59,925 nt of DNA from a virus (Duplodnaviria > Caudoviricetes): the IMG/VR virus record IMGVR_UViG_3300027983_000017, positions 1 through 59,925 of that record; one strand, 5' to 3'. Shown here in pieces: positions 26,416-52,540 of this stretch; the first letter of the stretch is position 1; every line of letters begins with the position of its first letter. Under the pieces are notes generated by a model that saw only the letters and a list, made by a program, of their open reading frames with translations, ran no database searches and had not been told where the DNA came from. The position numbers and the translations under genes were made by a program.

Positions 26416-26430
26416 ATTAGAATATAAATA

Positions 26431-26460: not shown

Positions 26461-26473
26461 AACTTGACAAGAT

Positions 26474-27508: not shown

Positions 27509-27520
27509 TTATAAAATAAA

Positions 27521-27904: not shown

Positions 27905-28184
27905 AATTGACGTGTTTGAAGCTTTTAAACAAGATACAAAACTATTAAAACAAGCTGTATGTGCTATAGAATCTCAAAATGAGAATAGCTTAAGACTTGT
28001 TTTAGAAAAAGGAATAGACGATCCAAAATTATATATACATGAAATAAGAAATAAAAAAGCTTTAAAGATTGTCAATCCCTATTTTAAAGGGATGTATAAA
28101 AAAAGAAATAAGTTATATTCGTCTTTTATGGACAAATATACATCAAGTATAAAAAATACTAAAGTGTATGTTGGGGATAATTGA
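27876..28184 (+). CDS. Hypothetical protein
   Basis: 102-aa ORF overlapping both neighbours. Confidence 0.55.
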   Translation: MILSYLNKFKIDVFEAFKQDTKLLKQAVCAIESQNENSLRLVLEKGIDDPKLYIHEIRNKKALKIVNPYFKGMYKKRNKLYSSFMDKYTSSIKNTKVYVGDN

Positions 28185-33394: not shown

Positions 33395-36300
33395 TTAACA
33401 TTCTTTTATCATACGTTCCACTTCTTTATCTATACTCAAACCATAACTAGTAAGGAAGTACCCATCCCCCTTAGATAATGTTTTTGGATCAAGTGACACT
33501 TTAAAACTTTTAAGCACATCAGATATTTCTTTCTTATGGTACTTAAGCTGTAATTTTTTGTCTGGTTCTAATATATAAATACTATCTAGCACTCTCCCAT
33601 CAGGTAGCATTCCAGGGTATGAAAATACAGCCACATTTCTAACAGAAGACTTGGTAGTAAGACTAATAGGCTCTTTATAAGCACTTATTTTTTTGGGGTT
33701 TTGACTAGGAAAAGCTTTATCTAAAAAGTTTTTTATAAGGTATTTTCTTTCAGTACGACCCATATTATTAAACTTAACAAGTGCTTCATTTAATATTCTC
33801 TGGTGGCTCTCGGGGGGTATTAAACTACTATAAGTAAAAGGGCTTGTAGTGTCCCCAGACTGATAATAAGACGCCTTTATTATATCTTTTGCTAAATCAG
33901 GGTTTAAAGACTCTATTTCAGAAAAAGCAGAAATAAGCATATTTTCTTCATATACAGTTCTTTTATTATTATACATAATAATATTATCTTGATCTCCTAT
34001 CCTGGTATCCCTGCTTTTAATTATAGGTACTAATTGTGTTATAGCATGATTACCGTAAAGCGGGTCTCTTTGATTTTTTTTAATATTACTTAATCTTACA
34101 GCCAAAGAGTTATCACCAAAAAATAACCTATGTAAATCCCTATTTATATTTATAGTCCCATTAGTAACAGAACCTATGGTATTTACAAGGTAGTTGGTAA
34201 ACTCAGATCTTAATAGTATTAAGAATTTGTCTCTATCTACAGCATGTTGTTCTGCCATTTTAATAAACTCTGAGTGTATGTCATAAGAATCTAAAGTAAA
34301 TAAGTCTACAAACAAAGACATTGCTCTTTCTATTACTTCTTTATAAGGCTTATAATAACCCCTCATAGACCTAGAATAACCCCTTATTTTTTTATCTCCA
34401 CTCAACCTAGCTATAGTATTCAATCTATTAGAAATAATAGTAGATATATTAGAGACACCATTTGTATCTAAACTAGAAGAGGTTACCACTTCTGACAGTC
34501 TACGAGAATCTTCTAAGTACACAATAAATTGGTCAAACGCTTTTATTTGATTTTCCTGAGATGGGTTTTTTATTTCAGATTCTAAATCTGCATTAGTTAA
34601 AGGTGTATTTAAGTATTCTTTTGTTTTTAATTCTTTATTAGAATACATATCAGGTAAGTTTACTGACACTAAGGCCTCTACTTTTTGCAATCCTGGTAAA
34701 TACTCTTTAGCTGCAAACTCCAAACCTTTTATTTTACCATTATAGTAACTTAAAAGCTTATAAGGATCACCCTTATATTTTTTTATTAGGTCTTTTTGTA
34801 TATCCCAGTCTTTTTTATCCGACTCTTTAAAAATAGAATTAGTATTTCTTATTTCTTGTACATAAGATTTTATAATAGGTTGATTCATAAAACTAATAGC
34901 CCATTCTACACTGACTCCAGATCTTATAAGATAAAACATGACATTAGAAACCTCTATATAACCATTCATATCAAATATATAAGGGTCTTTGGATACGTCT
35001 ACATAAGCAGTTAGGAACTCAGATAACACCTCACTTATAAGCCTCCCATCTTTATTTTTTCTTTGTGAAAAATCTACATAGCCGTCTTTATTATTATGCT
35101 CTGTAAATATATCAGCTTCTATTTTTATACCATAAAGTTGTGATATAGTATTATGTGTGATTTGAAGAGCAGTTACACCCACACCTTTCTTACCAGAAAG
35201 AAATGATTCAAAAGCTGTCATATTAGCTTTTAAAGTAAAAAGGTCCGTATAAGAATTTTCAACCCTTTTTCCTTTAGAAGACTCTTCTAACTTTCTTATT
35301 CTTTGGGTATTGTTGTATAAACTTCCTTTATCTAGTACGGGGTAGAGAAGTTGAGACGCATTATCGGGGTGTAGTAGTAACTTTTTTTCTATTTTTAGTT
35401 TTTTGTTAAACATCCCTTCAACACCTTGTGTGTCTTCTACTAGCTTTCCATCAACTACTTTAAAAGAGGGCATGTAGATATTAAGCTTATCAATGTCAAA
35501 GTCAGATCCTGCCTTAACAGTAATTGCGCTAGGTACTATTGTAATATCTCCACCCACTGGCGATAAGAACTTTTTTATAGTAAATACTTCAGCAGATGAT
35601 AAAGATTGTGTAGGTATACGGAAACCCACCCAAGTAAATAAGTCTTTATACTTAGGGTCGCTCAGATACTTTTCATTTATAATCTCTACACCTTTTGTTA
35701 TGTCACCTTTACCAAGTTTTTCTGCAATATTATAAAGGTTTTTAGGTAAAGCAGTTATAACCTCCATAGGAACAGTCTCAACTTCATTTATTTTATAAAA
35801 AGCCAGGAAAGAGTTAAATTTAGTATTACGTACTGTATCTTTAGTTTCAAAAAAAGAGCTTGATACCTGTACATGCCCCGACCCTGATCTTTTCTTGCTT
35901 ATAATCTTTTTATTGTAAAGGGCGGATACCATATCATATATCTTCTTTTTTGACTGTAAATGATCTAATTTACCAGGCCTAATAGAGTCTAGCTCTGAAA
36001 GTATATTATTATTAGCACCCCTTTTAGTTATATTCTCTATAAGGTAGTTTTTAAGAGCTGTAACGTCTTTTACGGACACTTCTCCATCTACTCCTATCTT
36101 GATACCCATTGAAGACTCCACACTCTCTAAAAGGGTGTTTGTTATATCTGTATTAAGTTTTATGTAATCTTCATGTAAAGCTTTTAATTCCTCATTTTGA
36201 AAAATTCCATCGTCTGAAATATTAGATAAGGCAATCTTATTTATTTGTGTACCCTCAGTAATATCTGTTTTTACTTTAGGTGCTATATCTAACTGAATGC

Positions 36301-39300
36301 CAAAATACTTATAATTTACAAGTTGTTCAGGAGCACCTTCAAAAGTAATAAAGCCATCCCCCTCTGTGTATAAAGAGTGTAGATTACCTCCTTCGTTAAT
36401 AAGGGCCCCAAATTTAGTAGCACTGCCTGTTTGTAAGATACCTATTTTTTTAGATGTCATATAACTAGATATTGTTTCTAATTTAGTATCCTTTATAACA
36501 CTAGGTACTAGTGGTAGTAAAGAGTGTTTAAAAGATACAGGATTATACCTACTTATATCATTAACATCAGGCCCCACATATTGTGTTTTTAAAGGGGGAA
36601 AATAAGATAATGACTCCAGAGAAATTCCCTGACCAGAAATTTCTTTTTGGTACAAAGCTTCTAATTTATCACTCCAAGACTTAGATCTTAAGTGGGTCTC
36701 TCTGTATTCATCTAATGTAATCCATCCCTGTGCATTAGCTTCATTAGCTTTTTGATATTCTTCTTTAATAGCAGATACTTGAGCAGAAGTGTGGGTCTTA
36801 CTAAAAAGTTTTACTATATCCTCAAGATCTTCTTCAGCGAGAGATGTTATAATATCTTTTATAGTTATAGTTTTTATTATATCTCTATCAGTATCTTTTT
36901 TATCAAGCCTTTTATAATTTTTGTTTAAGTGGTGTTCAAATTCTACATCACCTACCCTACTAATCTTTTTTGTAGCATTGTACAAAGACATCCTTTTAAA
37001 GAAATCTGTTGTATTTTTGTAGTAAGCAGGGTGACCTGTAAAAACTTTAGTAGTTTCTATATTAAACCCTATGTAATTATGAATAAACTTGTCCAGTTCT
37101 TCATCTTTGTAACTTTTAATATCCTCACCCAGAATTTGTTTTAAATAATTTTTTTGCGAGTCGAAAAATACTTTTAAAGCACCATCTATAAGTTCTTTCT
37201 TACTTTCTATGACTCTCTCTGCTATATTAAAGTCTTCATGCTCTATTATATCTTGTATTTGTAGCTTATTACCTAAATCATTTATTTTAAGAATATCTTG
37301 AAAGAACCCCATGTTAATCATGTTACTTTCTACGTATTGTGTATTAGACCCCTTTCTATCCCTAACAAAGTTTATTTCGTCCACAAGATAACCCCTAAAA
37401 GCTTTATAAGCCTCCTCAGTAGTGTTATAAAGCAACTCCCCATTGTTTATAAGGAAACCACTCTCAACCTTTCTGTCAGAAGCTCTGTTGAAGCTGTATA
37501 TCCCCTTTAAAGTATCTATTACCATCTTTTTAGCCCTATCTTTAGGTGACATTTTAGAAAGTTCTACAGAAACTAAAGGAGATTTAGAGTTTTTTACACC
37601 CTCATGAAAAAAGTGGGTTATTTTTTTACCTTCTAAAAGCCTCTTTTTTATTACAGAGTTTTTAGAGTACACATCATTAAATTGAGGAAAGGTATCTAGA
37701 TTAGAGCTATTCCAACTATTAGTCAGTAGAGAAAAATAAGTATTAAGCCCTATGTCATAGACGCTTGTCCCATCTACATTAAAATGTTGTAGCTCTACAG
37801 CCTCTTTTGACTTTTCTACCACCTTGGATACAAGATAATCTATCTGTCCACCTACAGAGCCCTTAGACCTGCTAAAAAGGCTGCCCATATCTGCTTTATC
37901 CGAATATTCTAGTATATTACTTACTATTTCCCTGATATTAGTATCGGGCTTACCCGCCATACTATAAACCTCTTTATCTGAATACATAGATGGGGTTTTA
38001 GTATAAATACCAAATTGATTTAATATTCTATCAAACACGTGCCAAGACTCTACATGTGGGTTATTAAGACTTTTAGCTAGATTTTCTATTTCAGCCCATG
38101 CAGAATTAGGTAGAGTCCTATTTTTAGTTTCGGGGTCAACAGTACCAGAAATAATATTCATGAGACTACTTTCCCACTCTTTTCTTATTTTAGCACTAAG
38201 TTTGTTCCTATTGGCATCTATTACTCGGTACTCCCCATCTTCTACTAATCCTAATAGAAAAGATGTTTTTGTCTGAGAAAAGTGTTGTAAAGTTTCAGTA
38301 ATTGCATTTTGACCTAATTTTTCTATTTTTTCTACAAATTCTGATAACTCAGGTCTAGAGTCAGAAAAAGTCAATAGCTTACTTTTAAGCTCAGCCCAAG
38401 AATAGCTACTATGAGCCAAATTCATCATATAGTCATGAGTAGAGCCTGGGTTTACAGACTGTTCCAAACCATAGTTAGGGCTACTACCAGTTTCTCTTAA
38501 AGAAGCTATTACCATTTTTACAAGATGGGGCATGTGATCTTTAGTAGAAAAAGTGTAAGCCTCTTTTAAAAATGCATAATCATTAGTACTTCTTTCTACT
38601 TCACTTATAGATTCTTCATCCATAGCAGCTTCCACCCCATAGTTGTACTTCATGTACTGGGTGTGAGCCTCCACTACTTTATCCCAATTATTAAAAATAG
38701 TATAATAATTTTTAACTTCGTCAATTCCCTCTGGGTTCTCTTCTTCTGAGTATTTTTCTTCTAAAGCAATACCCATATCGTTTTCCATATGATACCTTAC
38801 AGCATCATACACATCTTTAGGATCAGTATTCTCATCAAAGAAAAAGCCCTCTTTAAATTGAAGCATGTTATTAAGAAAATAAGAAGTGATACCCCTCATA
38901 ATCTCATTCTCGTGCTCTGTAGAGAGTTTTATTGTTTCCCCACCTTCTTCAAACTGTAACCCGTAGACCTTAGACTGTTTTTGTTTGTGTCTATCCTCTA
39001 TATCAGCTGTTGTTTCTGGAGAGTTTAATGAATTATTTTTGAAAGTATTTGTTGTAAAATTAACCCAATCTACTAAATCTTTATTTCTTCCATATTTTAA
39101 CTTTTCTGTAAATGCTGATAACCAATGAGATATTTTTATTTCTGTCCCGTCAGATAATTTTGTTTTTATAGGTTGATATTTAACTTCTTCTTTATTATAA
39201 AATAAATCAACACTAGCAGCATTTAAATCTTTTGGTACATTTTGTAACCCTTCATTATAAACTTCTCTATTTTCTGTAACTTTATTGGATCTAACACTAA

Positions 39301-42300
39301 CATCATAGTATCTTCTATAATTAGAAACTACTTTTCCTTTAGAATCAACAACATCATAACTTGCTATGTATTTATTTTCACCAAATTCATCAGGTTTAAA
39401 AAAAGTCATGTTGGTAACTTTATAACCTTTTGGCGGGACAATATATGTTTTAGTGTAGTATGTAGGTGAATCAAATTCTCTTACAATTTGAGAACCTTTA
39501 AACTCAGTTAGTAGTTTTACAGAAGGGTCTCCTGTATAGTCAAATGGAACTGCCCAGTCTATATCATGCATTAAATGCCCTAGTTTTCTGTAAACACTTC
39601 CTTGTTCCGCAACAGCTACACTACCCACTAGAGTTAATCCTTCACTACTTAAAAATTTAATTATATTTTCACCATGTTTAGATTCAGATAAAGCTTTTTC
39701 TAAAGTAACTCTTTCTTTGCCTTGTAGATTATTATCTCCTAATATTATTTCTTTATTATTTACTAAAACTTGAGAGATTATAGCATCTGTAATTTCTTTT
39801 ACATTTTTTGCAGAATTAAATAAATCTTTAAACCATTGTAAAAATTTATTAATAAATTTATGCAACTCAGAATTATTATTTTTAGCATCTAATAAAGATT
39901 CTTGTAAAAATTTTTCTAAAATAGAATTTTTAATTTTATTATATTCAGCAATATATTTTACCCACTCATCCATAGGTATTCTATTTCCTGCTTTTAAGTA
40001 ATCATATATTTTCTCAATTTCTGGTTGCTTTTTAATATTTGTTTTAAACTCTGCTGTATCTTCTATTAAATCTTGTAAATGATTAAAGTTAATGTTAGGA
40101 CTTGCTTGTAATAATTGAACAAGTAATTTAGAAGAACTATTTATAAAATCTTGATTTTCATTTGCAGGATTTATATAAGCAATTTTTCTTAAAATATCAA
40201 CAGAAGAATCTCCTTCTTTAAATGTTATTCCAAAATTATTAAAAAAAGTTATTAGTTTTTTATTAAAATCTTGGTCAGTAGGTATCTTACTTTCTATGAA
40301 AGATTGAATTTGTTCATTAGTATAATCAGCAAAAGCTGGTTCTATAAATTTTAAATCTTCTATGTTTTTATTTTGTTCTGGAGTTAATTGTTCACCAACA
40401 AACTTTTTAAATTCAGCGATTGTTTTTGGAGAGGTTAATATTGTTATTTGAGAAGGTTCAAATACTACTTTTTGAATTGTAATATAATCAACTATACCTG
40501 TTTTATTGTATAATTCTATATCAGAATTAACATATATAGAATCATATCCTAAATTTTTTAAATGTTTACCTATTTTTTCGTAGGCATCAACAGTCCATTT
40601 ATAATCACTTGCCCAATTAGTATCTTTATCTTCTTTCGTAAGAATATTTAATTTATCAACCCAACTTTCGTTTTCCCATTCTTTAGCTTGTATTATAAAA
40701 GGGTTTTTAATATTTAGTAAATTAGGGGAAACACTTCCTTTTTTGTTAGGAGCAGATTTCATTATAAAAGAATCTGTTTCGTTATCTCCTGTTAATTTGC
40801 TTTTAATACTATCATAGTCTTTTTGAGCGTATTGACTTGCTACTGTGATATAACTATTGGAAAAGAAAAAACCTAAAATTGAATTAGGATTTCTATATTC
40901 ATAATCTTCTTTATTTTTTAATTTTACAAAATCATCAGTATTTGTTTTTCCTCCATGATAATTTGGACTTTTAACTTTACTATCAGGTATCTTACTTTCT
41001 ATAAAATCCTGTATTTGCTCATTAGTATAAGGAGCATAAGCTGGTTCTATTGATTTTAAATCATCTATGTTTTTATTTTGTTCTGATGTTAATACATTTT
41101 TATTTCCTAAATCTTGTCTAGTTAAAAAAGCATCAGTTAATATATTAGTAAGTTGCTGTTTATCTAATTTAGAAAGATTATTAAATTTATCTAATATCCA
41201 TTTAACAAAATTATTCCACCAATTTAATGCTTCTCCTTTTTGTAAAACAACTTGTTCCCCTATACTTTGTACCAATGCTTCTTCACTACCCCATTTTTTA
41301 ATAGCTTCTTGTACTATTGGAGAATTTCTATACCAAGATATATAATGATGTGCATATTCATGAGGTAAAGTATCAGCTTTTTGATTTACAGCATCTATTA
41401 AAACAGTCATTGCTTTAATATTAGCTTGACCTATAATTCTATTAGCTTCATTTCTTTGTAACAAAATATTAGACAATTCTCTTGTTTGATTAATACCTAC
41501 TTCATACCAACCATTACCATATTCATCAGTAATTCTAATAGGACTATATCCTTGTTTCTTTAATACATTAAATACAGTTTCTTCATAGAATTTAGCAATA
41601 CTTGATATTTTTAACTTACCTGATTTAGCATCTGCTATTTCTGTTTCTAGTTGATATATTTCTATTGTATTATCAACACCTTTAGTTACGTTAATTTCAT
41701 AACTATTAAAATCTGCTTCTTTTCCTGCTAAATCAGCTTCTTCTTTTGTATTAAACTTTTTTGTTTCATTTCCACTTGGAGACCAATCATTTCCCATGTC
41801 AGTGGCAAAGTATTTTAATTGGTTTTTATTTAGTTCATTAATTCTTGCTTCTTTATTATCTATAAACCCTTGTACAGTTTGAAGTCCTTCTACTTTAGCT
41901 GCTGTATCTCCTACAGGAAATAATACTTTTTCATATCCTTTCTTAGCACTATCTTGTATGATAGATTTAACAAAGAATGTTACCCAATTATTGTCTTTGT
42001 TTAGTAATTGAAGGAATTGGTTTTCTTTACTAAAGGTTGAACCTTTATTTAGTTCTTTAGATAGTAATATAGCTTCTTCTTTTGTATTAAATTCTTTATA
42101 TAATTTTCTATCTCCTATGCCAGGTTCATTAACTTGCCATTTATTATTTTTATTAGATAAAGTATAAATAAGACTAGAACCGTTTATTAAATTATCTTTA
42201 TCTCTACCTTTCTGAAATAAATCACTTTGTATTTCTTGTATTTCTACAGCACCAGTTTTTTTATTATACCAGACTCTAGCCCAACCTATACCATTATGTG

Positions 42301-45300: not shown

Positions 45301-48300
45301 TATCATTAGGTTTTACCAAAGATGCATAGTTATCACTCAAAGCAAGTATTTCAGATATAGTAGTTATTAATTCATTTTCTAAGGCTGCTTTTTGATTTTT
45401 AATTATACTAGAAGCAACACTGGATTTATCAGCAGCTCTAACTTTATCTAAAACTTGATCATTAGTTAATGAACTTCTAACAAATCTACCATAAGCATCA
45501 ATAGCAGGCATAAAAGTTGTTAATTTATCACCATCAAAATCTGTTCCTGATTTAGCTACTATTTCAGTAGGAGGAATAATTATAGGTCCTGCTGAAGGAT
45601 CTAAAAAAGCATAAACTTCCATAAATTCCATAGAATTTATACCTTGTACAGGAATTCTTACAGCAGATAAAGTAACAGATTTTCTATTATTATTTAAATT
45701 TAACCAATCATCATTTTTTATCATTTCATTTAAACGGACTATTGTCTCTACAGGTTTACCATCCAAGTGTTTTGTTTTTAATAAGTTAACAAAATCTCCT
45801 TGTAAAGCAATAGCAACTTTCATTGCATTAGTTGTACCATCTGCGTTTCTACGATAAAAAGGTAAATTATTAGTTCCTAAAAATTGTTGTACTTCAGCCT
45901 CAGTTCCTTTTTTAAGATTTGAATCCCATATACCATTTGACATTGCACTAGATACTTGAACTAATGCTTCACCTTTAACTTTTTGTTTAATGAATCTTTT
46001 TTCAACTAAAGCTACTAGAATAGTTTCAATTTCATCAGCTAATAAATGAATAGATAAATCTGTTTTAAGTGAGTTGTCTCTATTAAGACCAACTAAATGT
46101 ATTAAATGCTCAGGAATATCTTTTCTTTCTAATTCTTTTTGAACCACATCTAAAAAATCATGTAGATTACCTGTATATTTATTATTTGTTTTATCATAAG
46201 TATAGTGTATCTCGTGTAATAATTCTAATTTTAATAATTCACTATAATTTTCTACAGCTTCTTCATATCTTTTTACAGCTTTTTCATTATCAGAATTAAT
46301 AATTTTACCCTCACTATACATATTACTTAAAATAAGTTTTCTTAACTGTGTTGAGAATACAGTTTTATTTTTATACTTACTTGGCACATTAGTAACATTT
46401 TTTAAATTTTCAAGATAAATTGTATTTTTTGTAAATGCTATATCTTTTTTTAATATTTTTTCATCAGATCCTTTTTCATAAACTATATCAGCTGAACCAT
46501 TTGAAGTTACACTACCTACTTTAGATCCCGTTTGAAAAGTAATATACTGTATATTTCCTATCATCATTTGTTTATGTAAAGATTCAAGATCTGAACCTGC
46601 AATTACTGAAGGAATTAAAGGAGCTAATACAAATTTATGCATTGCATTTACAGGTAAACCCGTATTTGCTAAGTGACCAAAGTTTTGTAATTTATATACT
46701 GGAAACAGCTCTATAGTATCAGATATTGTAATCTCTTCTCCATTTTTAATTTTTTGAAATAAACTTTCTTGATCATTAGACCAAGCATCTTCAAGATATC
46801 TTAGATTTCTATAAGCATCAAAAGTTATAAAACCTTGACCATCAGCTTCTTCAATATTTTTATATTTACTTATTTCAATAGCAACTCTTCTGTCTATTTC
46901 AGCTTTTGCATTAGGTATTTTATATTTTTCGTATTGCTTAGTATATGCCTCTCTTAAGCCAGCTTCTATTTGTTCAAGATATACAGACGTTCTTTTAACA
47001 TCTTGTACAACAGCTGTATTAAAAGTTCCATTATAAATTATAGGAGTTAAACCTTCTTTTTTAGCATATGAAGAACTTGCTAAGAAACTGTTTACAAATT
47101 TTCTAGCAGCAATGTCGGTTCTAAAAGCAGGGCCACCGGATGTAGCACCTGGGTTTCTTTTATGTAATTCTTCTACAGCATGATTATATTGAGAAATGTC
47201 TCCGTAAAACAAAATAGCCATTTCAAAATTATGTATCCAAGAATTATATGTATAAGCTTCAATTAATTTATTTTTCACATTATCCTCAGAAACACCAGCT
47301 TTCACCATTGCATTAGTAAGTTCTTTATCAACAAAAGTAACTTCATCTGAATCATTAATCTTTGTTTGTTGATCAAAATAAGATTTAACATTTCTTTTTA
47401 CAATGTTGAGTAAACCTGTAGTATCAGCATTTAAAAATTCTTTTAAATTAAAAGTTTTATTGTCAGCTAAAGCTTTATCAATACCTTTATATATAGCATT
47501 TTTACTAGCCGTAGTTAATACATTATCAAATGCAGTAAACACTTCTCCTGCCATAAGCCCTCCACCAATATCTCTATTGTAACCTATATAATTTTTATAT
47601 ATATTTTTATTTTGTTTAAACATATATATTCTTTCAGCTTCAGCTTCCATATAAGGTAGCATGTGTGCTTTAAAAGCATAATCTGATGCCGTACCATCAG
47701 CAAACATATTTAAGTCAACCCATAGATTCTTATCACTACCTTCTTTTCCAGGTAATCCTATGACACCTCCTTCAATCCTTGCACCAAAAGAAGCTGATTT
47801 AGATGCGTGTCTCATAAATTCTTGAATGCCATCTTTTAACATGGTATTCATTTCTTGAAGCATTTTACTATTAACATCTAAATTAGTTGTATTTACACCA
47901 GTACCATTCATTATTTGAGTACCAGAATTCATAAACAAGAGCAAAGATTTATTATTTCTTCTAGTCTGTTTTGCAGAGTTTAAATCAAATAAAGATCTAA
48001 TTGTAGCTAATCTTTTAGTATAAGGATTAGTTGTAGGATCCATATAGGACATGTATTGAAATTCATCTGTAGTCCATAGATCTGAAAGTACTTTAGCATT
48101 GTTTAAAGCAAATGTTATTTTACTAATTGTATTGTTTTCAATATGCTCAGAAACTAAATTTCTTTCTGCATTTAAAACCATTGTATTAGAACTGTCTAAA
48201 CCATAACGGGCTTGCAATTCAGCAATAGCCTTAATTTGTTTTTTCTGATTAATGTTTTCTAAACCCTGTATTTTAGAAACTTTGCTAGACATTAAAGTTT

Positions 48301-51300
48301 CTAAAGGTTCTGTTTTAAACTTGACTATTAAAGCTTTAGCATTACTAGAAGCAAAAGGTTTATTTTCTAAATCACTTAATTTTTTTATAATTGTAAATAT
48401 ATAAGGAAGACCAAACTGTTCAATAGTATCTGTATTCTTTTTGAGTGTGTTTTTAATTATACTTAAATCATCTAAATGAATACCTATAGCTCTAGCAAAA
48501 TTAAATGATTTTTCTATATCTAACTTTCCGTCAATACCAAAATCATTAACAATCTTTTGAATATTTAAAGTTGGTATGTTTTCTCTGCCAACTCTATCAA
48601 CATAAGGATTTGTAATACTAGAACTAAATTTGTTTTTAAAATTATTAATAATATTAAGAGTTTCACTAGAAGCTTCCGTAACAGAAGATGTATAATCATA
48701 CACACGTACATAACTATCATCTTCAAACATAGAAGATCTAGTAATAAATTTATCTACGGATTCTCCGTAAGTATTTATTTCTTTAGCCTGTGTTTTAAAA
48801 ACACTAAGCTGAATATAAGGAACTCTTGACTTACTAAAAGCTTGCCAAAGCGATGTGATAGCTTGAAATTCATAATGATTATTAGTAGTAGTTTCCGGAT
48901 TAGCTAATTTATTTTCTACTAATTGCTTAAATTGAACATTTGATAAACTTTCTTTTACTAAAGCATCATACATTTTTTGAGGATCTTGCATTCCTGCTAT
49001 TGCTCTAACAGTACTATTCCAAGTTGTTCTAAAATCTGCAAGTTTCTTAAAACCTAAATTATTATAAACATAATCAATTTCTTTAGTTTTTTTATTAATT
49101 GATCCTTGATGTAAACTTTTAAGAATAAATAAAGTTTCTTTACCAGCAAGCTGTATTAAAGTTTTACTTCCCTCTTTTTTATCTCCATATCTTTCACTAT
49201 TTTCTATATTCTGAGGATCAAACAAGTTACCTTCTTCATCTAATTCTAAAGCTGTATATTTTTGTTTTATTAAATCAAATGAGCTATTATCAACATGATA
49301 TTTAATTAAACCAGTATCTGTATCACCATAATTATCTACACCAGCTTGAAGAATTCTGATTCTATTTTCTAATATTTCTTTTTTAAAAGCATTGATTTCA
49401 ATATCTTCTGTATTATCTAAAGCTTCTTTATAACTAGTTAATTTTTCATCTAACTTTACTTTAATCAGTTTATATAAAGGCTCTCTATTTCTTGAATCAA
49501 GTAATAAACTTAAAGTTACTGATTTTGATTTTTTAATCTTAGTTTGTTCATCACTAATCTCAGAAATAATAGAATCCATACTATCTTTAAGTAAATTGGA
49601 ATCTTGTCTATTTAAAACCTGCTCTGTTTTAGTTCCCGTTTTAACAATACCGCTGTTTCTATATAATAAATCAAACATGACATTATCAACAGAAGGTAGA
49701 TAATTATTTAAATTAGTTCCTAGATATAAATTATCAAATAAATCTTTAACTTTTTTAATATCAGTCACATCAGTCACACTTCCTTTTCCAAAAAGCTCTC
49801 TTAAAAAATTAAGTATTTTTCTAAATAAGCTATTTCTTTTAGGTGATTCTTTTTGTGTTCTTCCAGTTCTAGCATATTCTCTAAAACTTTCCGCTAAATG
49901 TTCTTCAATTGTAAAAAAATCTGCTTTTGAACCTAATTTCTTTTGTACTTCTTTATATAAAGCTTTTTTATCAGCTCTACTTAAATACAATTGAGAAAAA
50001 GCATGCCAAGCTTCATGATACACATCCACCATAGATCCTTTAGCAGCTAAGTCAATCATACCTAAGTTGCCGTTTAAAGTAGCTCCTGAAACTATAAATC
50101 TAGCATAAGCATCAGAATTTACAATATTAGCAACTTCTCTAAAACCAACATGTTTATTTAATAATGAGTTAGCCCACCACTTTTTAGCATTTGAAACTTG
50201 TTCTTCTGTTACATCTGAAGGTAAGTCAGCATTTCTAAAAAAGAATACGTCAGCAGCTCCCTTATCTTCAGGTTTTGCTTCACCTTTAGCATCTATAACA
50301 TTATTAATCTCAACTTCAATTTCTTCAACAGACTTTTGAATAACAGGTTGTTTTGCTATATCAGATGGTTTATTAAAATCTTCAATTTCGCTTTCTCTTA
50401 CATAACCTAAAAGTTTGTTACCGCTTCTAACTTCAACTACATCTATGAATTTTTTACCTTTAACTTCAATTTCAGGAATTAAAATTAAAGTTACTCCTTT
50501 TACTATATCTGCATTAGTAACTATTCCCGCATCAATATTTCCACTTTTAACATCAACTCTGTTATAAAAATCAATAACCATACCATCAGATGTAGTTATA
50601 TTCCATCTACTTACAGCACCAAAAGGTTTTGATATAGTTCCTATTATTTCAGTACCTGTTTTAAGAATTGAAACTACTTTTTCTTTAATTTGTTTAACTC
50701 CAAGAATTGGTTCTACATCTGCAGAATCTGTTAATGTATCAAATAAATCATCTTTGATATAAATGTCTGTATTTTCCTTAGCTTTTGCTAATTGTGCTGT
50801 AAACTCATTAGGTAAAGCAAACTCTATATTATTATTAAAAGTTCTCGTATTTTTAGTTAAATCAATACTTACTGTTGTGTTAGGTAAAGTTTTTAAAAAT
50901 TCAGTATAACTAGAGTAATCTTCATTAAGTTTATTAGCACCTAAATCATAATCCAAAAATTGATTGTCATTTAATGCTTTTGCATTATATGTCATTTTAG
51001 CTCCAAAGTAATCACCTTTTACACCACTAGCTTCCATCAAAGAGTTATAGATAATTTCAGATGATGCATCAATATCTAAATTTACAACTATAAAAATTGA
51101 CAATCTTTCTTTATAAGTAGTTGGTGAATAACTGTATATTAATTTATCAGTATTAGGTAAATATTTAAGTCTGTGTTTTCTTGTTGCTTGAGAAGCATTG
51201 TTAGCTAAAAATTGAGTAACAAAATTATATTTTTTTAAATTTGATAAATTTTTATTGGTAAGCGCAGCAGCAATTTTTCTTGCTACATCAGCCGTAAGAT

Positions 51301-52540
51301 TAGGTCTATCAATAACATGTTCTTCACCTTTTATAGTAATAACTGCTTCTCCTTTTTTTCCACCTGTACGTTCCGATTTAACTGTAACAATAGAGCTAAT
51401 AGCAGCATCATTATCTTCTAATACTGAAGTGATATTAGACAAATTTAATTTTTCAGGTTTAGTTTCACTTGCTCCTGTGCTTATACCTACAATATCAACT
51501 AAAGGTTGCTCTTGACTTTTTATAAGGTTTTGTCTAAATTCATAAAGTTCTTTAAACTCTTGTTGTTGTTGTTTTAAAGCTTTCTCAACGGGTATTCCTA
51601 AGTTTTTAGATATAAGGCTAGGAGTCATTATTTGATCTTGTTTACCATAAATATCAGTAACTCTATATATATTATTTTCTTTTCTAACATCTCTTAAGAA
51701 TTGATATACAATACTCCCTCCTAATTCTTTAGTTGTTATATTTCCCGTTTCATTAAAAAATAAATAGTTACCTTTAGCATCAGTAATTATCATTAAAAAT
51801 CTCTCAGAAGGAATAGTAACATTAGGTTGTGCTTGCCCTGTACTTGTAAGATGTAATGCACGCGTTACTGAGCTTGCTGTAGTTTTATCTAAATTTTCAA
51901 TATTAATTTTATCAATACTAACAGGTTGTAATTTTAAACTAGTATTTTCATAAATAAGTTCTCTTAAAGAAGTATTATTGTTAGCAATACTACTGATAGC
52001 ACTTAAGGTGTTATATATTGTTTTTTTACCAGCATCAAGAGTTTCAACATCTATAGTTTGATTAGGATTTAGTTGAATAAATTCTTGAAATGTAGTAGAT
52101 AAAGCAGACAAAGGTTTATTATTAAAATTACTTGGAATAACAGAATCTCCATCTGCTTCAGTAATTGTATATGCTAGGTTAGCTGCTTCTATTACTAATT
52201 CTTTTTGTACTTCAGGATTAAGTGTAGGATTAAAATAATTAACAGTATTTATTAAACCATTCTCTTCTTTTTTAAATTGTTTAATTAAGGGTCTAAGAAG
52301 ATCTGTTTTTATTTCAAAATCTTGAAGAGTTGGTCTAAAAGATGCTATGCCTATTAATGACGGGACTTGTTGCAAAAACTTAGATGCTGTATCCACATCT
52401 TTTGCTTTAGCAATTTTATTAAATAAATCTGTCATATATTGTTTAGCGTCAAAAGCTTCTTTTTGATTAAGCATGTGACCATAAACATTAGCATATAATT
52501 TCTCAATCTGAGAACTAGATAAAGCACAAGTTACTTTCAT
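33395..52540 (-). CDS. Giant virion RNA polymerase polyprotein (phi14:2 gp66-like) with two RNAP modules and accessory domains
   Basis: RIPVQG...SGTDFDGDKL (aa ~2334) and RIPTQS...AGSDFDIDKL (aa ~5680); two HExxH motifs; uninterrupted 6381-codon frame. Confidence 0.88.
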   Translation of the reverse strand: MKVTCALSSSQIEKLYANVYGHMLNQKEAFDAKQYMTDLFNKIAKAKDVDTASKFLQQVPSLIGIASFRPTLQDFEIKTDLLRPLIKQFKKEENGLINTVNYFNPTLNPEVQKELVIEAANLAYTITEADGDSVIPSNFNNKPLSALSTTFQEFIQLNPNQTIDVETLDAGKKTIYNTLSAISSIANNNTSLRELIYENTSLKLQPVSIDKINIENLDKTTASSVTRALHLTSTGQAQPNVTIPSERFLMIITDAKGNYLFFNETGNITTKELGGSIVYQFLRDVRKENNIYRVTDIYGKQDQIMTPSLISKNLGIPVEKALKQQQQEFKELYEFRQNLIKSQEQPLVDIVGISTGASETKPEKLNLSNITSVLEDNDAAISSIVTVKSERTGGKKGEAVITIKGEEHVIDRPNLTADVARKIAAALTNKNLSNLKKYNFVTQFLANNASQATRKHRLKYLPNTDKLIYSYSPTTYKERLSIFIVVNLDIDASSEIIYNSLMEASGVKGDYFGAKMTYNAKALNDNQFLDYDLGANKLNEDYSSYTEFLKTLPNTTVSIDLTKNTRTFNNNIEFALPNEFTAQLAKAKENTDIYIKDDLFDTLTDSADVEPILGVKQIKEKVVSILKTGTEIIGTISKPFGAVSRWNITTSDGMVIDFYNRVDVKSGNIDAGIVTNADIVKGVTLILIPEIEVKGKKFIDVVEVRSGNKLLGYVRESEIEDFNKPSDIAKQPVIQKSVEEIEVEINNVIDAKGEAKPEDKGAADVFFFRNADLPSDVTEEQVSNAKKWWANSLLNKHVGFREVANIVNSDAYARFIVSGATLNGNLGMIDLAAKGSMVDVYHEAWHAFSQLYLSRADKKALYKEVQKKLGSKADFFTIEEHLAESFREYARTGRTQKESPKRNSLFRKILNFLRELFGKGSVTDVTDIKKVKDLFDNLYLGTNLNNYLPSVDNVMFDLLYRNSGIVKTGTKTEQVLNRQDSNLLKDSMDSIISEISDEQTKIKKSKSVTLSLLLDSRNREPLYKLIKVKLDEKLTSYKEALDNTEDIEINAFKKEILENRIRILQAGVDNYGDTDTGLIKYHVDNSSFDLIKQKYTALELDEEGNLFDPQNIENSERYGDKKEGSKTLIQLAGKETLFILKSLHQGSINKKTKEIDYVYNNLGFKKLADFRTTWNSTVRAIAGMQDPQKMYDALVKESLSNVQFKQLVENKLANPETTTNNHYEFQAITSLWQAFSKSRVPYIQLSVFKTQAKEINTYGESVDKFITRSSMFEDDSYVRVYDYTSSVTEASSETLNIINNFKNKFSSSITNPYVDRVGRENIPTLNIQKIVNDFGIDGKLDIEKSFNFARAIGIHLDDLSIIKNTLKKNTDTIEQFGLPYIFTIIKKLSDLENKPFASSNAKALIVKFKTEPLETLMSSKVSKIQGLENINQKKQIKAIAELQARYGLDSSNTMVLNAERNLVSEHIENNTISKITFALNNAKVLSDLWTTDEFQYMSYMDPTTNPYTKRLATIRSLFDLNSAKQTRRNNKSLLLFMNSGTQIMNGTGVNTTNLDVNSKMLQEMNTMLKDGIQEFMRHASKSASFGARIEGGVIGLPGKEGSDKNLWVDLNMFADGTASDYAFKAHMLPYMEAEAERIYMFKQNKNIYKNYIGYNRDIGGGLMAGEVFTAFDNVLTTASKNAIYKGIDKALADNKTFNLKEFLNADTTGLLNIVKRNVKSYFDQQTKINDSDEVTFVDKELTNAMVKAGVSEDNVKNKLIEAYTYNSWIHNFEMAILFYGDISQYNHAVEELHKRNPGATSGGPAFRTDIAARKFVNSFLASSSYAKKEGLTPIIYNGTFNTAVVQDVKRTSVYLEQIEAGLREAYTKQYEKYKIPNAKAEIDRRVAIEISKYKNIEEADGQGFITFDAYRNLRYLEDAWSNDQESLFQKIKNGEEITISDTIELFPVYKLQNFGHLANTGLPVNAMHKFVLAPLIPSVIAGSDLESLHKQMMIGNIQYITFQTGSKVGSVTSNGSADIVYEKGSDEKILKKDIAFTKNTIYLENLKNVTNVPSKYKNKTVFSTQLRKLILSNMYSEGKIINSDNEKAVKRYEEAVENYSELLKLELLHEIHYTYDKTNNKYTGNLHDFLDVVQKELERKDIPEHLIHLVGLNRDNSLKTDLSIHLLADEIETILVALVEKRFIKQKVKGEALVQVSSAMSNGIWDSNLKKGTEAEVQQFLGTNNLPFYRRNADGTTNAMKVAIALQGDFVNLLKTKHLDGKPVETIVRLNEMIKNDDWLNLNNNRKSVTLSAVRIPVQGINSMEFMEVYAFLDPSAGPIIIPPTEIVAKSGTDFDGDKLTTFMPAIDAYGRFVRSSLTNDQVLDKVRAADKSSVASSIIKNQKAALENELITTISEILALSDNYASLVKPNDTYLLKNDIADKLAEYVTDYDRFSNMHNEAVRLDKNGKKIISPTRTLEVSYNLHKHEVNMVGKKVLGMIAIENSLHPMMNSIGVSLPAKYKNLKYNASLGRNVEGKKEFLTRLLLRHNKTKDGRISLSNIYSVDGLDSIGELFSQMLNGAVDVEKDAWIFFIQGNYETLPILLFLLKAGVPKKEAILFVSNPLVREYTKQQRTLKSTYAKITGFVEDDFENSFVKYQAGRNTLIKYVGEKESFYPTSNKKYYNTVQKATSRSGILNNAGNFDIALMTRLVEDPKNPAYEKHAIAMFLHFLELEKSTRGFTALKFMANPDTKTSKTLQELIRRNLTIDEGKALSTLEEGTIEKLQDSILGTFFDNKLISDLIIPVFPLRNNDIVTNYIVKKFKNNSVKITKSFGSTQDGARNFITAFKNAIPNYIFQNYMTNFVDEKGNLISMPKEYKGMDVVIKAGIKTGAEVIDGKLYVDEVKLKKQYAKKLYDRSNTTSENYASDGLRGFMNIEELFPNESTYFKYVFEREHQRSMYSLVSIKDSKDFKRLNDLIKDEKQAYEAYLNKKALINSFNRKAIMDLKGQSFTDLILNIIEDYPILTTKYDIISQFTKPNIATGQEVLSLNDVSALKDSQIAEIYHQNLLDLADETVKKVIDPVENKKISKAFEMLPLMSIYQNGIGYSKYGFNKALPYSNFIGVMQTASEIFMSNQLNNNTLDYIFDVVTDTKNKNFKNYVVSSQEYNNPLPITPVIDTISEDEADALLQKMNVSSQEPLTLEQSKNIDDLKFIELNEKIKTKLQQLYPEIKLEYSNNPIWEQGDNVFNQEEFNNQVQYRLKATEILLSTKADEVFRKGDKNNWNIDKILTELNVPKQQQELIKSFNTRNREQIVTNLLSNYSYTVEINTAKEKGKDYKMVDLGDGNFEPEPFEPDYDYDDEGNPFLTEQGIKDIEEIEGGINNTQHYSNLSAPGSTEGKSKYEGNPDWEYHELEFKTPAITPSIRGHAQFATHNGIGWARVWYNKKTGAVEIQEIQSDLFQKGRDKDNLINGSSLIYTLSNKNNKWQVNEPGIGDRKLYKEFNTKEEAILLSKELNKGSTFSKENQFLQLLNKDNNWVTFFVKSIIQDSAKKGYEKVLFPVGDTAAKVEGLQTVQGFIDNKEARINELNKNQLKYFATDMGNDWSPSGNETKKFNTKEEADLAGKEADFNSYEINVTKGVDNTIEIYQLETEIADAKSGKLKISSIAKFYEETVFNVLKKQGYSPIRITDEYGNGWYEVGINQTRELSNILLQRNEANRIIGQANIKAMTVLIDAVNQKADTLPHEYAHHYISWYRNSPIVQEAIKKWGSEEALVQSIGEQVVLQKGEALNWWNNFVKWILDKFNNLSKLDKQQLTNILTDAFLTRQDLGNKNVLTSEQNKNIDDLKSIEPAYAPYTNEQIQDFIESKIPDSKVKSPNYHGGKTNTDDFVKLKNKEDYEYRNPNSILGFFFSNSYITVASQYAQKDYDSIKSKLTGDNETDSFIMKSAPNKKGSVSPNLLNIKNPFIIQAKEWENESWVDKLNILTKEDKDTNWASDYKWTVDAYEKIGKHLKNLGYDSIYVNSDIELYNKTGIVDYITIQKVVFEPSQITILTSPKTIAEFKKFVGEQLTPEQNKNIEDLKFIEPAFADYTNEQIQSFIESKIPTDQDFNKKLITFFNNFGITFKEGDSSVDILRKIAYINPANENQDFINSSSKLLVQLLQASPNINFNHLQDLIEDTAEFKTNIKKQPEIEKIYDYLKAGNRIPMDEWVKYIAEYNKIKNSILEKFLQESLLDAKNNNSELHKFINKFLQWFKDLFNSAKNVKEITDAIISQVLVNNKEIILGDNNLQGKERVTLEKALSESKHGENIIKFLSSEGLTLVGSVAVAEQGSVYRKLGHLMHDIDWAVPFDYTGDPSVKLLTEFKGSQIVREFDSPTYYTKTYIVPPKGYKVTNMTFFKPDEFGENKYIASYDVVDSKGKVVSNYRRYYDVSVRSNKVTENREVYNEGLQNVPKDLNAASVDLFYNKEEVKYQPIKTKLSDGTEIKISHWLSAFTEKLKYGRNKDLVDWVNFTTNTFKNNSLNSPETTADIEDRHKQKQSKVYGLQFEEGGETIKLSTEHENEIMRGITSYFLNNMLQFKEGFFFDENTDPKDVYDAVRYHMENDMGIALEEKYSEEENPEGIDEVKNYYTIFNNWDKVVEAHTQYMKYNYGVEAAMDEESISEVERSTNDYAFLKEAYTFSTKDHMPHLVKMVIASLRETGSSPNYGLEQSVNPGSTHDYMMNLAHSSYSWAELKSKLLTFSDSRPELSEFVEKIEKLGQNAITETLQHFSQTKTSFLLGLVEDGEYRVIDANRNKLSAKIRKEWESSLMNIISGTVDPETKNRTLPNSAWAEIENLAKSLNNPHVESWHVFDRILNQFGIYTKTPSMYSDKEVYSMAGKPDTNIREIVSNILEYSDKADMGSLFSRSKGSVGGQIDYLVSKVVEKSKEAVELQHFNVDGTSVYDIGLNTYFSLLTNSWNSSNLDTFPQFNDVYSKNSVIKKRLLEGKKITHFFHEGVKNSKSPLVSVELSKMSPKDRAKKMVIDTLKGIYSFNRASDRKVESGFLINNGELLYNTTEEAYKAFRGYLVDEINFVRDRKGSNTQYVESNMINMGFFQDILKINDLGNKLQIQDIIEHEDFNIAERVIESKKELIDGALKVFFDSQKNYLKQILGEDIKSYKDEELDKFIHNYIGFNIETTKVFTGHPAYYKNTTDFFKRMSLYNATKKISRVGDVEFEHHLNKNYKRLDKKDTDRDIIKTITIKDIITSLAEEDLEDIVKLFSKTHTSAQVSAIKEEYQKANEANAQGWITLDEYRETHLRSKSWSDKLEALYQKEISGQGISLESLSYFPPLKTQYVGPDVNDISRYNPVSFKHSLLPLVPSVIKDTKLETISSYMTSKKIGILQTGSATKFGALINEGGNLHSLYTEGDGFITFEGAPEQLVNYKYFGIQLDIAPKVKTDITEGTQINKIALSNISDDGIFQNEELKALHEDYIKLNTDITNTLLESVESSMGIKIGVDGEVSVKDVTALKNYLIENITKRGANNNILSELDSIRPGKLDHLQSKKKIYDMVSALYNKKIISKKRSGSGHVQVSSSFFETKDTVRNTKFNSFLAFYKINEVETVPMEVITALPKNLYNIAEKLGKGDITKGVEIINEKYLSDPKYKDLFTWVGFRIPTQSLSSAEVFTIKKFLSPVGGDITIVPSAITVKAGSDFDIDKLNIYMPSFKVVDGKLVEDTQGVEGMFNKKLKIEKKLLLHPDNASQLLYPVLDKGSLYNNTQRIRKLEESSKGKRVENSYTDLFTLKANMTAFESFLSGKKGVGVTALQITHNTISQLYGIKIEADIFTEHNNKDGYVDFSQRKNKDGRLISEVLSEFLTAYVDVSKDPYIFDMNGYIEVSNVMFYLIRSGVSVEWAISFMNQPIIKSYVQEIRNTNSIFKESDKKDWDIQKDLIKKYKGDPYKLLSYYNGKIKGLEFAAKEYLPGLQKVEALVSVNLPDMYSNKELKTKEYLNTPLTNADLESEIKNPSQENQIKAFDQFIVYLEDSRRLSEVVTSSSLDTNGVSNISTIISNRLNTIARLSGDKKIRGYSRSMRGYYKPYKEVIERAMSLFVDLFTLDSYDIHSEFIKMAEQHAVDRDKFLILLRSEFTNYLVNTIGSVTNGTININRDLHRLFFGDNSLAVRLSNIKKNQRDPLYGNHAITQLVPIIKSRDTRIGDQDNIIMYNNKRTVYEENMLISAFSEIESLNPDLAKDIIKASYYQSGDTTSPFTYSSLIPPESHQRILNEALVKFNNMGRTERKYLIKNFLDKAFPSQNPKKISAYKEPISLTTKSSVRNVAVFSYPGMLPDGRVLDSIYILEPDKKLQLKYHKKEISDVLKSFKVSLDPKTLSKGDGYFLTSYGLSIDKEVERMIKEC
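40280..43000 (-). repeat. Three dispersed linker repeats inside the virion RNAP gene (about 40280-40387, 40985-41092, 42953-43000)
   Basis: LT.EQ.KNI.DLK.IE occurs three times; two copies extend to PA.A.YTNEQIQ.FIESKIP and are also similar at the DNA level. Confidence 0.85.

Follow-up and report, generated by a model that had tools for sequence, protein, structure and literature searches.

Two crAss-type virion RNA polymerase modules of different phage lineages in one assembled 6381-residue reading frame

Described relatives and the assembled locus

RNA polymerases of the gp66 family are packaged in the virion and perform Mg-dependent, rifampicin-resistant transcription of early genes. The concept of polyvalent proteins of phages and conjugative elements was reportedly put forward by Iyer et al. 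in 2017. Among crAss-like phages, the virion-packaged single-chain two-barrel RNA polymerase is represented by gp66 of Cellulophaga phage phi14:2 (PDB 6VR4), a protein of 2180 aa with one active site. A virion-delivered two-barrel RNA polymerase fused to a giant structural protein, accompanied by a second RNA polymerase in the same phage, is reported for Thermus phage P23-45 in a preprint (bioRxiv 10.1101/2022.12.01.518664); there, each enzyme has its own gene and its own role (virion or non-virion) instead of sharing one frame, and the phage is not crAss-like.

The locus analyzed here is like phi14:2 in its block order, i.e., a g067-like ORF, the RNA polymerase, a g065-like ORF and then a converging replication module. 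It is unlike gp66 in that a 6381-aa frame holds two modules, of which module 1 has G at a position occupied by I or V and module 2 lacks the ~450 residues with which its nearest homologue begins. With polyvalent proteins it shares the character of a giant multi-domain protein, probably travelling with the DNA, that contains a PolyVal-set effector-type domain (ART-PolyVal, PF18760, above cut-off), HExxH motifs and repeated linkers, while its scaffold, unlike theirs, is a virion RNA polymerase. The window, that is, the whole stretch of DNA that was analyzed, is an entire 59.9-kb IMG/VR record, and its parts are assigned below to two phage lineages, A and B. Its main blocks are as follows:

33395..52540, minus strand: 6381-aa ORF (P0001), without internal stop, as assembled
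52545..58145, minus strand: 1866-aa ORF, placed like g067 of phi14:2; lineage B; GC3 0.114; 58-59% identical to G001 and G003
29497..33393, minus strand: 1298-aa ORF, placed like g065 of phi14:2; lineage A; GC3 0.265; unmatched in G001-G005
1..29423, plus strand: lineage-A replication and nucleotide-metabolism module with PHROGs matches, converging on the giant ORFs

The PHROGs matches on the last block were a family-A DNA polymerase, thymidylate synthase, RNR, a DnaB-like helicase, Sak4, primase and exonuclease, and a terminator-like hairpin that reads on both strands lies between the converging modules (29443-29466). On both halves of the 6381-aa ORF, Pfam and PHROGs returned almost nothing, the only matches being ART-PolyVal and, on the 1298-aa ORF, a weak exonuclease.

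Two homologues of gp66 in one frame

The contig sequence contains two crAss-type RNA polymerase modules within one frame, and the parts that bear them are listed here:

42997..52540, minus strand: part colinear with complete lineage-B single-polymerase proteins (aa 1 to ~3183), from tblastn against L006
50003-50017, minus strand: zincin-like HEAWH (aa 842), inside the lineage-B polymerase part
44531..46909, minus strand: RNA polymerase module 1 core (aa 1878-2670), lineage B, from its relatives and a 6VR4 profile match; DFDGD at 45527-45541
33398..38950, minus strand: lineage-A RNA polymerase without its own N-terminal ~450 residues (aa 4531-6381), from similarity to P0002 and 6VR4
34679-36802, minus strand: module 2 core, with DFDID at 35489-35503

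All 12 motif strings quoted in an earlier note, made from the sequence alone, were found in the ORF in colinear order, with DFDGD at aa 2334-2338 (module 1), DFDID at aa 5680-5684 (module 2) and HExxH at aa 842 and aa 3727. That these strings form two colinear series was borne out by self-BLASTP, in which aa 1878-2670 and aa 5247-5954 aligned over 823 columns with 24.5% identity (E 7.7e-39), a resemblance far beyond chance, and module 1 used as a query against the record retrieved module 2 at E 1.5e-27. The low identity agrees with the note's view that the copies are strongly diverged and do not stem from a recent duplication. That the polymerase was duplicated internally, long ago and in a single lineage, both copies then being retained and diverging in place, comes closest to the two series as the note had seen them and would explain their colinearity. 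However, the modules resemble each other far less than they resemble single-copy proteins of different clades (L006 for module 1, P0002 for module 2), composition and flanking genes change lineage between the modules, and no relative with two copies was found, so that we rejected this explanation as highly improbable.

The core of module 1 is 46-73% identical to 23 relatives on viral contigs, the best being L006 (73%). In tblastn, aa 1-3179 were covered at 68% identity by this locus, whose ORF has 3215 aa, and the closest loci at 55-68% were L006, L014/L015, L005, L013 and L042, with L012 at 54%. In this respect the frame resembles the environmental crAss-like single-polymerase giants (L004-L082), since aa 1 to ~3183 are colinear with complete proteins of 3215-3611 aa. 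The zincin region (aa 798-938) is also similar to the N-termini of P0002, P0004 and P0006, and no Pfam model was reached by the zincin-like regions. Because a direct phmmer search of the PDB with module 1 gave no polymerase, its match to 6VR4 was obtained with a profile of 15 sequences (E 2.2e-33, four colinear stretches including the catalytic motif); tblastn against phi14:2 g066 gave 2e-15. An AlphaFold2 model of the module 1 core was poor (mean pLDDT 52.7, below 30 in the catalytic stretch), and the sole significant Foldseek match of this poor model was 6vr4_A (E 5.9e-6, TM 0.38).

Module 2 matched 6VR4 directly in phmmer (E 2.2e-36, gp66 stretches 875-1392 and 1545-1695). The alignment of both modules with gp66 covers ~875/927 to ~1400 and resumes at ~1545/1611, and the catalytic motifs (SDFDIDK in module 2, DFDxD in the module 1 profile) fall on SDFDIDK of gp66, whose DFDID occupies 1361-1365. 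On these alignments, both modules are assigned as homologues of the crAss-type virion RNA polymerase (gp66 family), and each alone would, by analogy with what has been shown for phi14:2 gp66, be an ordinary single-chain two-barrel virion RNA polymerase that is injected with the DNA for early-gene transcription.

The nearest homologue of module 2 is P0002, a stand-alone protein of 2340 aa that is 46% identical over its residues 455-2339. Its first 454 residues have no counterpart at module 2: the alignments begin at residue 455 of P0002 and residue 329 of P0004, on the giant ORF at aa 4531-4535, and the sole match of the N-terminal zincin of P0002 and P0004 is at aa 766-938 of the giant ORF. 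By these alignments, module 2 is a copy of a stand-alone polymerase from which the N-terminal part is missing. Viral contigs searched with module 2 alone yielded no close relative, and an alignment query reached only 24-29% identity.

The earlier note had contrasted a cellular DFDGD with the crAss DFDID. The G of module 1 is present, and the Logan contigs of runs X1-X4 show zero differences at 45521-45550, the DFDGD region, but the contrast amounts to a one-residue variant, as all 79 relatives of module 1 have I or V. A preprint (10.1101/2020.03.07.982082) states I or V at the fourth motif position for all crAss-like RNA polymerases; the I of module 2 fits this, and the G of module 1 departs from it by one residue, which is no ground for excluding the module from the gp66 family. 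Whatever the origin of the frame, there is one freshwater lineage with a cellular-type DFDGD motif. Seven lineage-B loci contain another DFDxDK string, ~690 aa C-terminal to the catalytic one; it was considered and did not represent a second module.

A switch of lineage inside the frame

The window is a mosaic of two phage lineages that switches inside the ORF at ~39.0 kb, at the following feature:

38951..39040, minus strand: junction linker (aa 4501-4530), boundary of lineage-B-like and lineage-A sequence, from GC3, the cassette end and the start of P0002/P0004 similarity

A single GC3 change point was located at aa 4514, where the value rises from 0.110 to 0.245 (LLR 88, 2-log-likelihood interval at window 38971-39157). 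All ORFs right of the junction have GC3 of ~0.11 and all those left of it 0.20-0.27 (0.20-0.25 in the replication module, 1..29423), and the difference between neighbouring giant ORFs in three relatives is at most 0.07. Homology to the cassette module described below stops at aa 4500, and that to P0002 and P0004 begins at aa 4531 and aa 4535. G001 and G003 share 58-68% identity with the right-arm ORFs. In the left arm (window 1-29423), three of the 41 frames of at least 100 aa match G001, G003 and G005, and weakly so (DnaB 22-23%, Sak4 43-46%, primase 26%), and the DNA polymerase and the 1298-aa ORF had no match in any of the five genomes G001-G005, three of which are 91-96% complete. The left-arm synteny, with primase and exonuclease genes converging on a 1298-aa-like ORF after the RNA polymerase, occurs also in the clade L122-L135, and homologues of the 1298-aa ORF lie directly downstream of the RNA polymerase ORF in 14/14 lineage-A loci (E 1e-13 to 1e-127).

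It is possible, if somewhat doubtful, that the window represents a real and recent recombinant phage, in which illegitimate recombination at module boundaries fused the polymerase-cargo end of lineage B in frame to the catalytic core of lineage A and replaced the g065-like gene and replication module of B by those of A. Since the compositional switch lies exactly at the junction, a single event would explain the mosaic. In favor of such an event, the junction is in frame at the usual end of the cassette (aa 4498-4500), near the start of the polymerase-core homology, all three aspartates and long conserved blocks are retained in both modules, and proteins of 6000-7550 aa are normal in the family (12/147). 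The outcome would be one 6381-aa virion protein with a pair of active sites, in which the A-type core might act on the early genes of A that arrived with it. Against it, an unameliorated GC3 of 0.11 versus 0.245 implies a very recent cross of quite different phages.

A recombinant is also disfavored by the survey of relatives for two DxDxD modules per ORF that the earlier note had proposed, which produced no second module in 79 lineage-B loci (L004-L082), 14 lineage-A loci (L122-L135), five whole records (G001-G005) or 147 representative proteins, 12 of which have at least 6000 aa. Long cargo-module extensions are common in the single-polymerase giants among the database representatives (up to 7550 aa), as in the present frame, but each of those proteins has one polymerase module. 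It holds either way that polymerase proteins of this family reach 7550 aa with one module each. The phage collection contained 91 places in 90 records; for MT835473.1, listed with two places, one polymerase locus was found and the second was not reproduced. The apparent two modules of P0080 proved to be a single module split by an insertion of ~840 aa.

Cargo modules and contig depth between the arms

The sequence between the two polymerase parts consists of cargo modules and linker repeats:

41108..42976, minus strand: cargo module with the second HExxH (HEYAH, aa 3727, window 41348-41362); GC3 low, like the right arm
40391..40972, minus strand: ART-PolyVal ADP-ribosyltransferase domain (Pfam PF18760, 38.4 bits when scanned alone, cut-off 31.2, E 2.6e-9; below the cut-off inside a long piece)
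39041..40267, minus strand: mobile 'cassette' module (aa 4092-4500) of no named family, from L136 and database proteins
42952..43006: linker repeat copy 1 (84-87% over 55 nt)
40985-41093 and 40280-40388: linker repeat copies 2 and 3, flanking the ART domain (87% over 109 nt)

The first cargo module had no Pfam match; its counterparts are sequence that follows the RNA polymerase ORF in L008 and L009 (46% identity), the C-terminal part of P0003 (40%) and P0039 (48%). Repeats at the linkers were also seen at the protein level by self-comparison. The cassette shows 81% nucleotide identity to the metagenome contig L136 over window 40271-39055, where similarity ends, and its identity along L136 has no step at 39215, which gives no help in locating a mis-join. 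It is present in 37 database proteins, with most alignments stopping at aa 4498-4500, and is N-terminal to the RNA polymerase in six proteins and C-terminal in four; therefore, a cassette-polymerase protein in A and a polymerase-cassette protein in B would both be in character. Either way, a cassette of ~410 aa is mobile, being placed before the polymerase in some proteins and after it in others. Beyond aa 4500, the apparent alignments of P0056, P0057 and P0037 were dismissed as gapped linker similarity with no polymerase-core homology.

Logan contigs of three runs (X1-X3), possibly the source samples, were then compared with the window; these are contigs rather than reads, the figures apply among the contigs listed, and the depth bookkeeping is approximate. 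A 37,411-nt contig ends at 39215 with depths of 24.3/40.2/43.5 in the three runs, and a 6,209-nt contig starts at 42963, within linker repeat copy 1, with depths of 40.9/63/63.5, so that the right arm is 1.46-1.68-fold deeper than the left in 3/3 runs. Among the contigs listed, none spans 39215-42963 in any of the three runs; these 3.7 kb are a tangle of short contigs (300-616 nt) made of shuffled cargo modules. The ~39.0-kb junction itself (window ~38990-39040) is real DNA: in all three runs the 37.4-kb contig contains it and extends at least 175 nt beyond it into the cassette, so that a mis-join can only lie to its right, from 39.2 to 43.0 kb. Over about 40.3-41.4 kb, additional contigs of at least 95% similarity contribute an estimated depth of 20-25/44-48/42-46, which tracks the left arm. 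In run X4, a right-arm strain with ~1.1% differences reaches a depth of ~615 and the left arm is essentially absent.

We consider it fairly probable that the 6381-aa frame is a mis-joined assembly of two crAss-like phages through a shared module, in which case the two arms would not lie on one molecule. The giant virion-polymerase genes of two phages from the same freshwater samples would have been joined in one frame. Phage B would contribute window ~39.0-59.9 kb (GC3 ~0.11), with the complete once-per-genome polymerase of a large clade extended by cargo, i.e., the second zincin, ART-PolyVal and the mobile cassette, and phage A window 1-39.0 kb (GC3 ~0.245), with the replication module, the g065-like ORF and a gp66-like polymerase without its first ~450 residues. 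Cargo modules are shuffled among such phages, on either side of polymerase modules; in this reading, A and B would have carried similar copies, and a short-read assembler would have switched genomes inside the shared, repeat-rich 3.7-kb stretch; a switch inside a shared module would keep the frame automatically. Several observations sit less well with a mis-join. The GC3 switch falls at the real ~39.0-kb junction and not at a contig end, and this junction is in frame with a module boundary on both sides, as in a natural domain fusion. Among the contigs listed, none of the window-identical ones reaches the sum of depths that a long stretch shared identically should show, and 17 of the 18 listed contigs of the window path through the tangle have at least the depth of the left arm, which fits a recombinant with co-occurring B strains too.

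The recombinant phage introduced above is consistent with the path produced by the assembler, in which successive Logan contigs are compatible through 30-nt overlaps, with the A/B junction lying within one contig in 3/3 runs, and with the deeper right arm, as needed if other B strains share it. However, the depth step requires extra strains identical over 6.2 kb, the intermediate depths in the tangle require at least three populations, the extra similar copy at 40.3-41.4 kb that tracks left-arm depth is left unexplained, and a window-identical contig at 40053-40388 (X2) has a depth of 21.6, half that of the left arm (40.2). The earlier note had proposed a tandem two-polymerase polyprotein, possibly with differing promoter specificities and possibly processed by its own HExxH domains; what stands of this is that both modules, by their 6VR4 matches, are genuine homologues of the crAss-type virion enzyme, whereas the reading as biology is not supported, given the two lineages with their different codon composition, the truncation of module 2, the lack of a two-module relative and of a bridging contig, and the unequal arm depth. 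That note had also held that its reading would fall if read mapping traced the halves to two phages joined by misassembly, and the contigs, which served here in place of raw reads, come near to this.

If the frame is a mis-join, it is a warning that two genomes of co-occurring crAss-like phages can be stitched together through the cargo modules they have in common, in frame, and that a public viral catalogue then shows the product as a single clean giant ORF. A hybrid crassvirus, whose B-type virion polymerase-cargo polyprotein captured the catalytic core, the g065-like gene and the whole early and replication module of A, is possible, if somewhat doubtful. If true, it would be the first case of a virion protein that combines two active sites of the two-barrel RNA polymerase type, a single injected 6381-aa protein delivering two polymerases, the foreign one travelling with its co-evolved early genes. 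It would also reveal a route for swapping whole early modules between distant crAss-like phages and a direct handle on how these phages match the injected polymerase to early genes during module exchange.

An exact 43-nt pattern (39106-39148) had no match in viral and metagenome contigs, a result that is uninformative since near-identical records may be missing from them. Runs X5-X8 contained 5-7% of words. Joints with short sides (22-25 letters), e.g., one from 39027 to 40970/40976 with a depth of 41-48 in X2 and X3, do not have the length needed for interpretation; together with a loose end at 39098 in X2, they show that other arrangements exist.

Two polymerase modules in one reading frame

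The sequence is a whole IMG/VR virus record, linear, of 59,925 bases, with a CheckV completeness estimate of 51%. The earlier note had described in it a single 6381-aa ORF carrying two colinear motif series, and this description was borne out: the frame is open throughout, and every quoted motif string was found in the order claimed.

Giant ORFs, and catalytic motifs located by motif search
33395..52540, minus strand: giant ORF, 6381 residues without a stop
52545..58145, minus strand: 1866-aa giant ORF, same-strand neighbour of the 6381-aa ORF
29497..33393, minus strand: 1298-aa giant ORF, same-strand neighbour of the 6381-aa ORF
45527-45541, minus strand: DFDGD of module 1, aa 2334-2338
35489-35503, minus strand: DFDID of module 2, aa 5680-5684

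In a self-BLASTP comparison, an alignment of 823 columns pairs aa 1878-2670 with aa 5247-5954 (24.5% identity, E 7.7e-39). The C-terminal 1381 residues of the giant ORF matched chain A of 6VR4, i.e. gp66, the virion RNA polymerase (RNAP) of Cellulophaga phage phi14:2 (E 2.2e-36), and the module 2 match spans gp66 residues 875-1392, which include SDFDIDK, and 1545-1695. Module 1 gave no direct match in the PDB with phmmer; a profile of this module and 14 relatives matched four colinear stretches of 6VR4, catalytic motif included (E 2.2e-33), and phi14:2 g066 was matched by module 1 at 2e-15 in tblastn. For the module 1 core, AlphaFold2 gave a poor model (mean pLDDT 52.7), whose sole significant Foldseek match was 6vr4_A (E 5.9e-6, TM 0.38). 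The proposal of two RNAP modules in one ORF is upheld by the 6VR4 matches of module 2 and of the module 1 profile, and, at the level of sequence comparison, we regard both modules as established homologues of crAss-type virion RNA polymerases. The phi14:2 gene block has the same order as the window, namely g067, then the RNAP gene g066, then g065, then converging replication genes. A G+C-rich hairpin (29443-29466), terminator-like on both strands, marks the exact boundary between the 1298-aa ORF and the replication module that converges on it.

The contrast drawn previously between DFDGD and DFDID holds in that both motifs are present, but it reduces to a single-residue variant: the fourth position is I or V in all 79 lineage-B relatives of module 1 (47 DFDID, 24 DFDVD, 8 DYDVD). 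A passage of the gp66 preprint (10.1101/2020.03.07.982082) gives I or V at this position for all crAss-like RNAPs, and another reports that the early transcripts dependent on gp66 share no upstream motif. Module 1 has the cellular-type G at this position. Since no Logan contig of four runs, including that of the strain in a further freshwater sample (X4), differs from this G at 45521-45550, we consider it a small real oddity.

Two lineages along the frame

GC3 along the giant ORF shifts abruptly only once, at aa 4514 (window ~38998; from 0.110 to 0.245, LLR 88), with a 2-log-likelihood interval of 38971-39157. It is 0.107-0.114 in the ORFs at 52.5-59.9 kb and 0.20-0.27 in the 1298-aa ORF and five sampled plus-strand ORFs. 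Adjacent giant ORFs of three related genomes differ in GC3 by at most 0.07. Lineage B denotes the right arm (~39.0-59.9 kb) and lineage A the left arm. The 79 IMG/VR relatives of module 1 share 39-71% identity with it. For the closest ones, L006 (polymerase ORF of 3215 aa) among them, colinearity with the giant ORF runs from aa 1 to ~3183, at 55-68% identity, and goes no further. Right-arm ORFs are 58-68% identical to those of the whole virus records G001 and G003. Only 3 of the 41 left-arm frames of at least 100 aa (window 1-29423) have any match in G001, G003 or G005 (DnaB-like, 22-23% identity; Sak4-like, 43-46%; primase, 26%), and neither the family-A DNA polymerase nor the 1298-aa ORF is matched in any of five such records (G001-G005), three of which are 91-96% complete. 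Left-arm synteny recurs in a different, distant clade (L122-L135), where primase and exonuclease genes converge on a 1298-aa-like ORF, itself after an RNAP ORF. The module 2 part is closest to P0002, a stand-alone polymerase of 2340 aa (46% identity), whose residue 455 aligns with giant aa 4531 in an alignment extending to both C-termini; residue 329 of another database protein, P0004, aligns with giant aa 4535. Both lineages keep a zincin-like HExxH region on the N-terminal side of the polymerase core, and the zincin-like regions at the N-termini of P0002 and P0004 match only giant aa 766-938, inside the module 1 protein. Composition, relatives, synteny and truncation therefore indicate that the frame joins a lineage-B protein (aa 1 to ~4500), through a linker of ~30 residues, to a lineage-A polymerase without its first ~450 residues. 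The two modules have separate histories within this genome. An ancient in-place duplication was excluded, since the modules share only 24.5% identity, against 73% between module 1 and L006 and 46% between module 2 and P0002.

The tandem two-polymerase arrangement did not recur among relatives: a second module was found in none of the 79 lineage-B loci (10 kb searched on either side), 14 lineage-A loci, five whole records or 147 further proteins from the top 150 of 2933 matches (1.84 billion representatives searched). Twelve of these 147 single-module representatives (P0092-P0174 among them) are 6000-7550 aa long, and their module lies 4000-6600 residues in from the N-terminus. P0080 was rejected as a two-module protein, having one module split by an insertion of ~840 aa. 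Matches at 91 places were obtained from 90 records of the phage collection; the one surplus place was not reproduced. A passage of Yutin et al. (2021, PMC7886860) presents the crAss-like transcription block as several large proteins, one with the DxDxD motif. A full-text literature search, a weak negative, found no paper on a two-module crAss-like polymerase.

Cargo modules and the join

Past ~aa 3183, where the relatives' proteins end, the frame holds three linker copies separating three modules.

Linkers and modules between the polymerases
42952-43006, 40985-41093 and 40280-40388: linker copies 1-3, 84-87% nucleotide identity
aa ~3189-3811: module with the second HExxH, between linkers
between two linker copies: ART-PolyVal domain, 38.4 bits against a Pfam cut-off of 31.2 when scanned alone
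39041-40267 (aa 4092-4500): cassette of ~410 aa without a Pfam family

The ART domain is flanked by two linker copies, and ART-skipping contigs occur in the same samples (joint depth 7.6 in X1, 14.9 in X2). Going by its distribution among sequences, the cassette is mobile. Thirty-seven database proteins contain it, either by itself or as part of a larger protein, with most alignments stopping at aa 4498-4500; it lies N-terminal to a polymerase module of the same protein in six (P0035, P0036, P0041, P0042, P0049, P0063) and C-terminal in four (P0012, P0038, P0040, P0043). A copy 81% identical in nucleotide sequence is present in metagenome contig L136; it spans window 40271-39055, beyond which the contig is no longer similar. 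The cassette contains a GS...HDIDW stretch, which may resemble nucleotidyltransferase motifs.

Three freshwater metagenome runs (X1-X3), possibly the assembly's own source samples, contain 97-98% of the words of window 34001-44000. Depth and bridging were judged from assembled Logan contigs.

Logan contigs around the join (depths as X1 / X2 / X3)
~1805 to 39215 (end): left contig, 37,411 nt; 24.3 / 40.2 / 43.5
42963 to 49171: right contig, 6,209 nt; 40.9 / 63 / 63.5
between 39186 and 42963: listed short contigs, 302-616 nt; 30-38 / 21.6-54.5 / 46-65

The lineage junction (~38990-39040) lies inside the 37.4-kb contig in all three runs, where at least 175 nt of the cassette follow on its right; this speaks against a simple chimera. 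The junction is real DNA, and any mis-join is confined to 39.2-43.0 kb. None of the listed short contigs from X1-X3 bridges the whole 39186-42963 stretch, and 30-nt overlaps link them. The right arm is 1.46-1.68-fold deeper than the left in every run. In bin 40340-41006 the summed depth (56.8/96.3/97) exceeds that of the right arm, and other contigs there, with a similarity of 95% or more, contribute about 20-25/44-48/42-46, an estimate derived from bin sums, which tracks the left arm. X4 contains a right-arm strain at a depth of ~615, ~99% identical over 43290-49000 (58 differences in 5.2 kb). Its divergence sets in left of ~43255, close to where the standard polymerase protein ends; depth is only 0-2.2 everywhere left of ~43.0 kb, the whole left arm included.

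We consider it fairly probable that the giant two-polymerase frame is an assembly chimera of two phages. Phage A would encode a protein of its own with the cassette before the polymerase, and phage B one with the polymerase before the cassette, architectures that both exist in nature; the assembler would have crossed between similar copies of cargo modules, so that the frame would be kept. A chimera explains the depth step, the tangle of short contigs, the extra copy tracking the left arm, the truncation and the uniqueness of the frame. Alternatively, and more tentatively, a real recent recombinant phage carries both modules; one event would then give the bridged, in-frame junction at a module boundary coinciding with the GC3 switch, but the observed depths would require several co-occurring strains and the extra copy would stay unexplained. 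The slight remainder of probability falls to other possibilities.

Genes of the left arm

A plus-strand gene run (9637-21920) matches glutamine amidotransferase (twice), an S6-glutaminyl-transferase-like ATP-grasp protein, COOH-NH2 ligase, GlmS-like aminotransferase and amidoligase, and may represent a modification pathway inside the replication module. Also on the plus strand, the DNA polymerase ORF (3586-5472) covers only part of its profile (positions 668-1232 of 1445), as does the RNR ORF (12968-14590; positions 530-973 of 975). Introns or inteins have been reported for crAss-like phages; both genes may be split, e.g. by such elements, or else be short forms.
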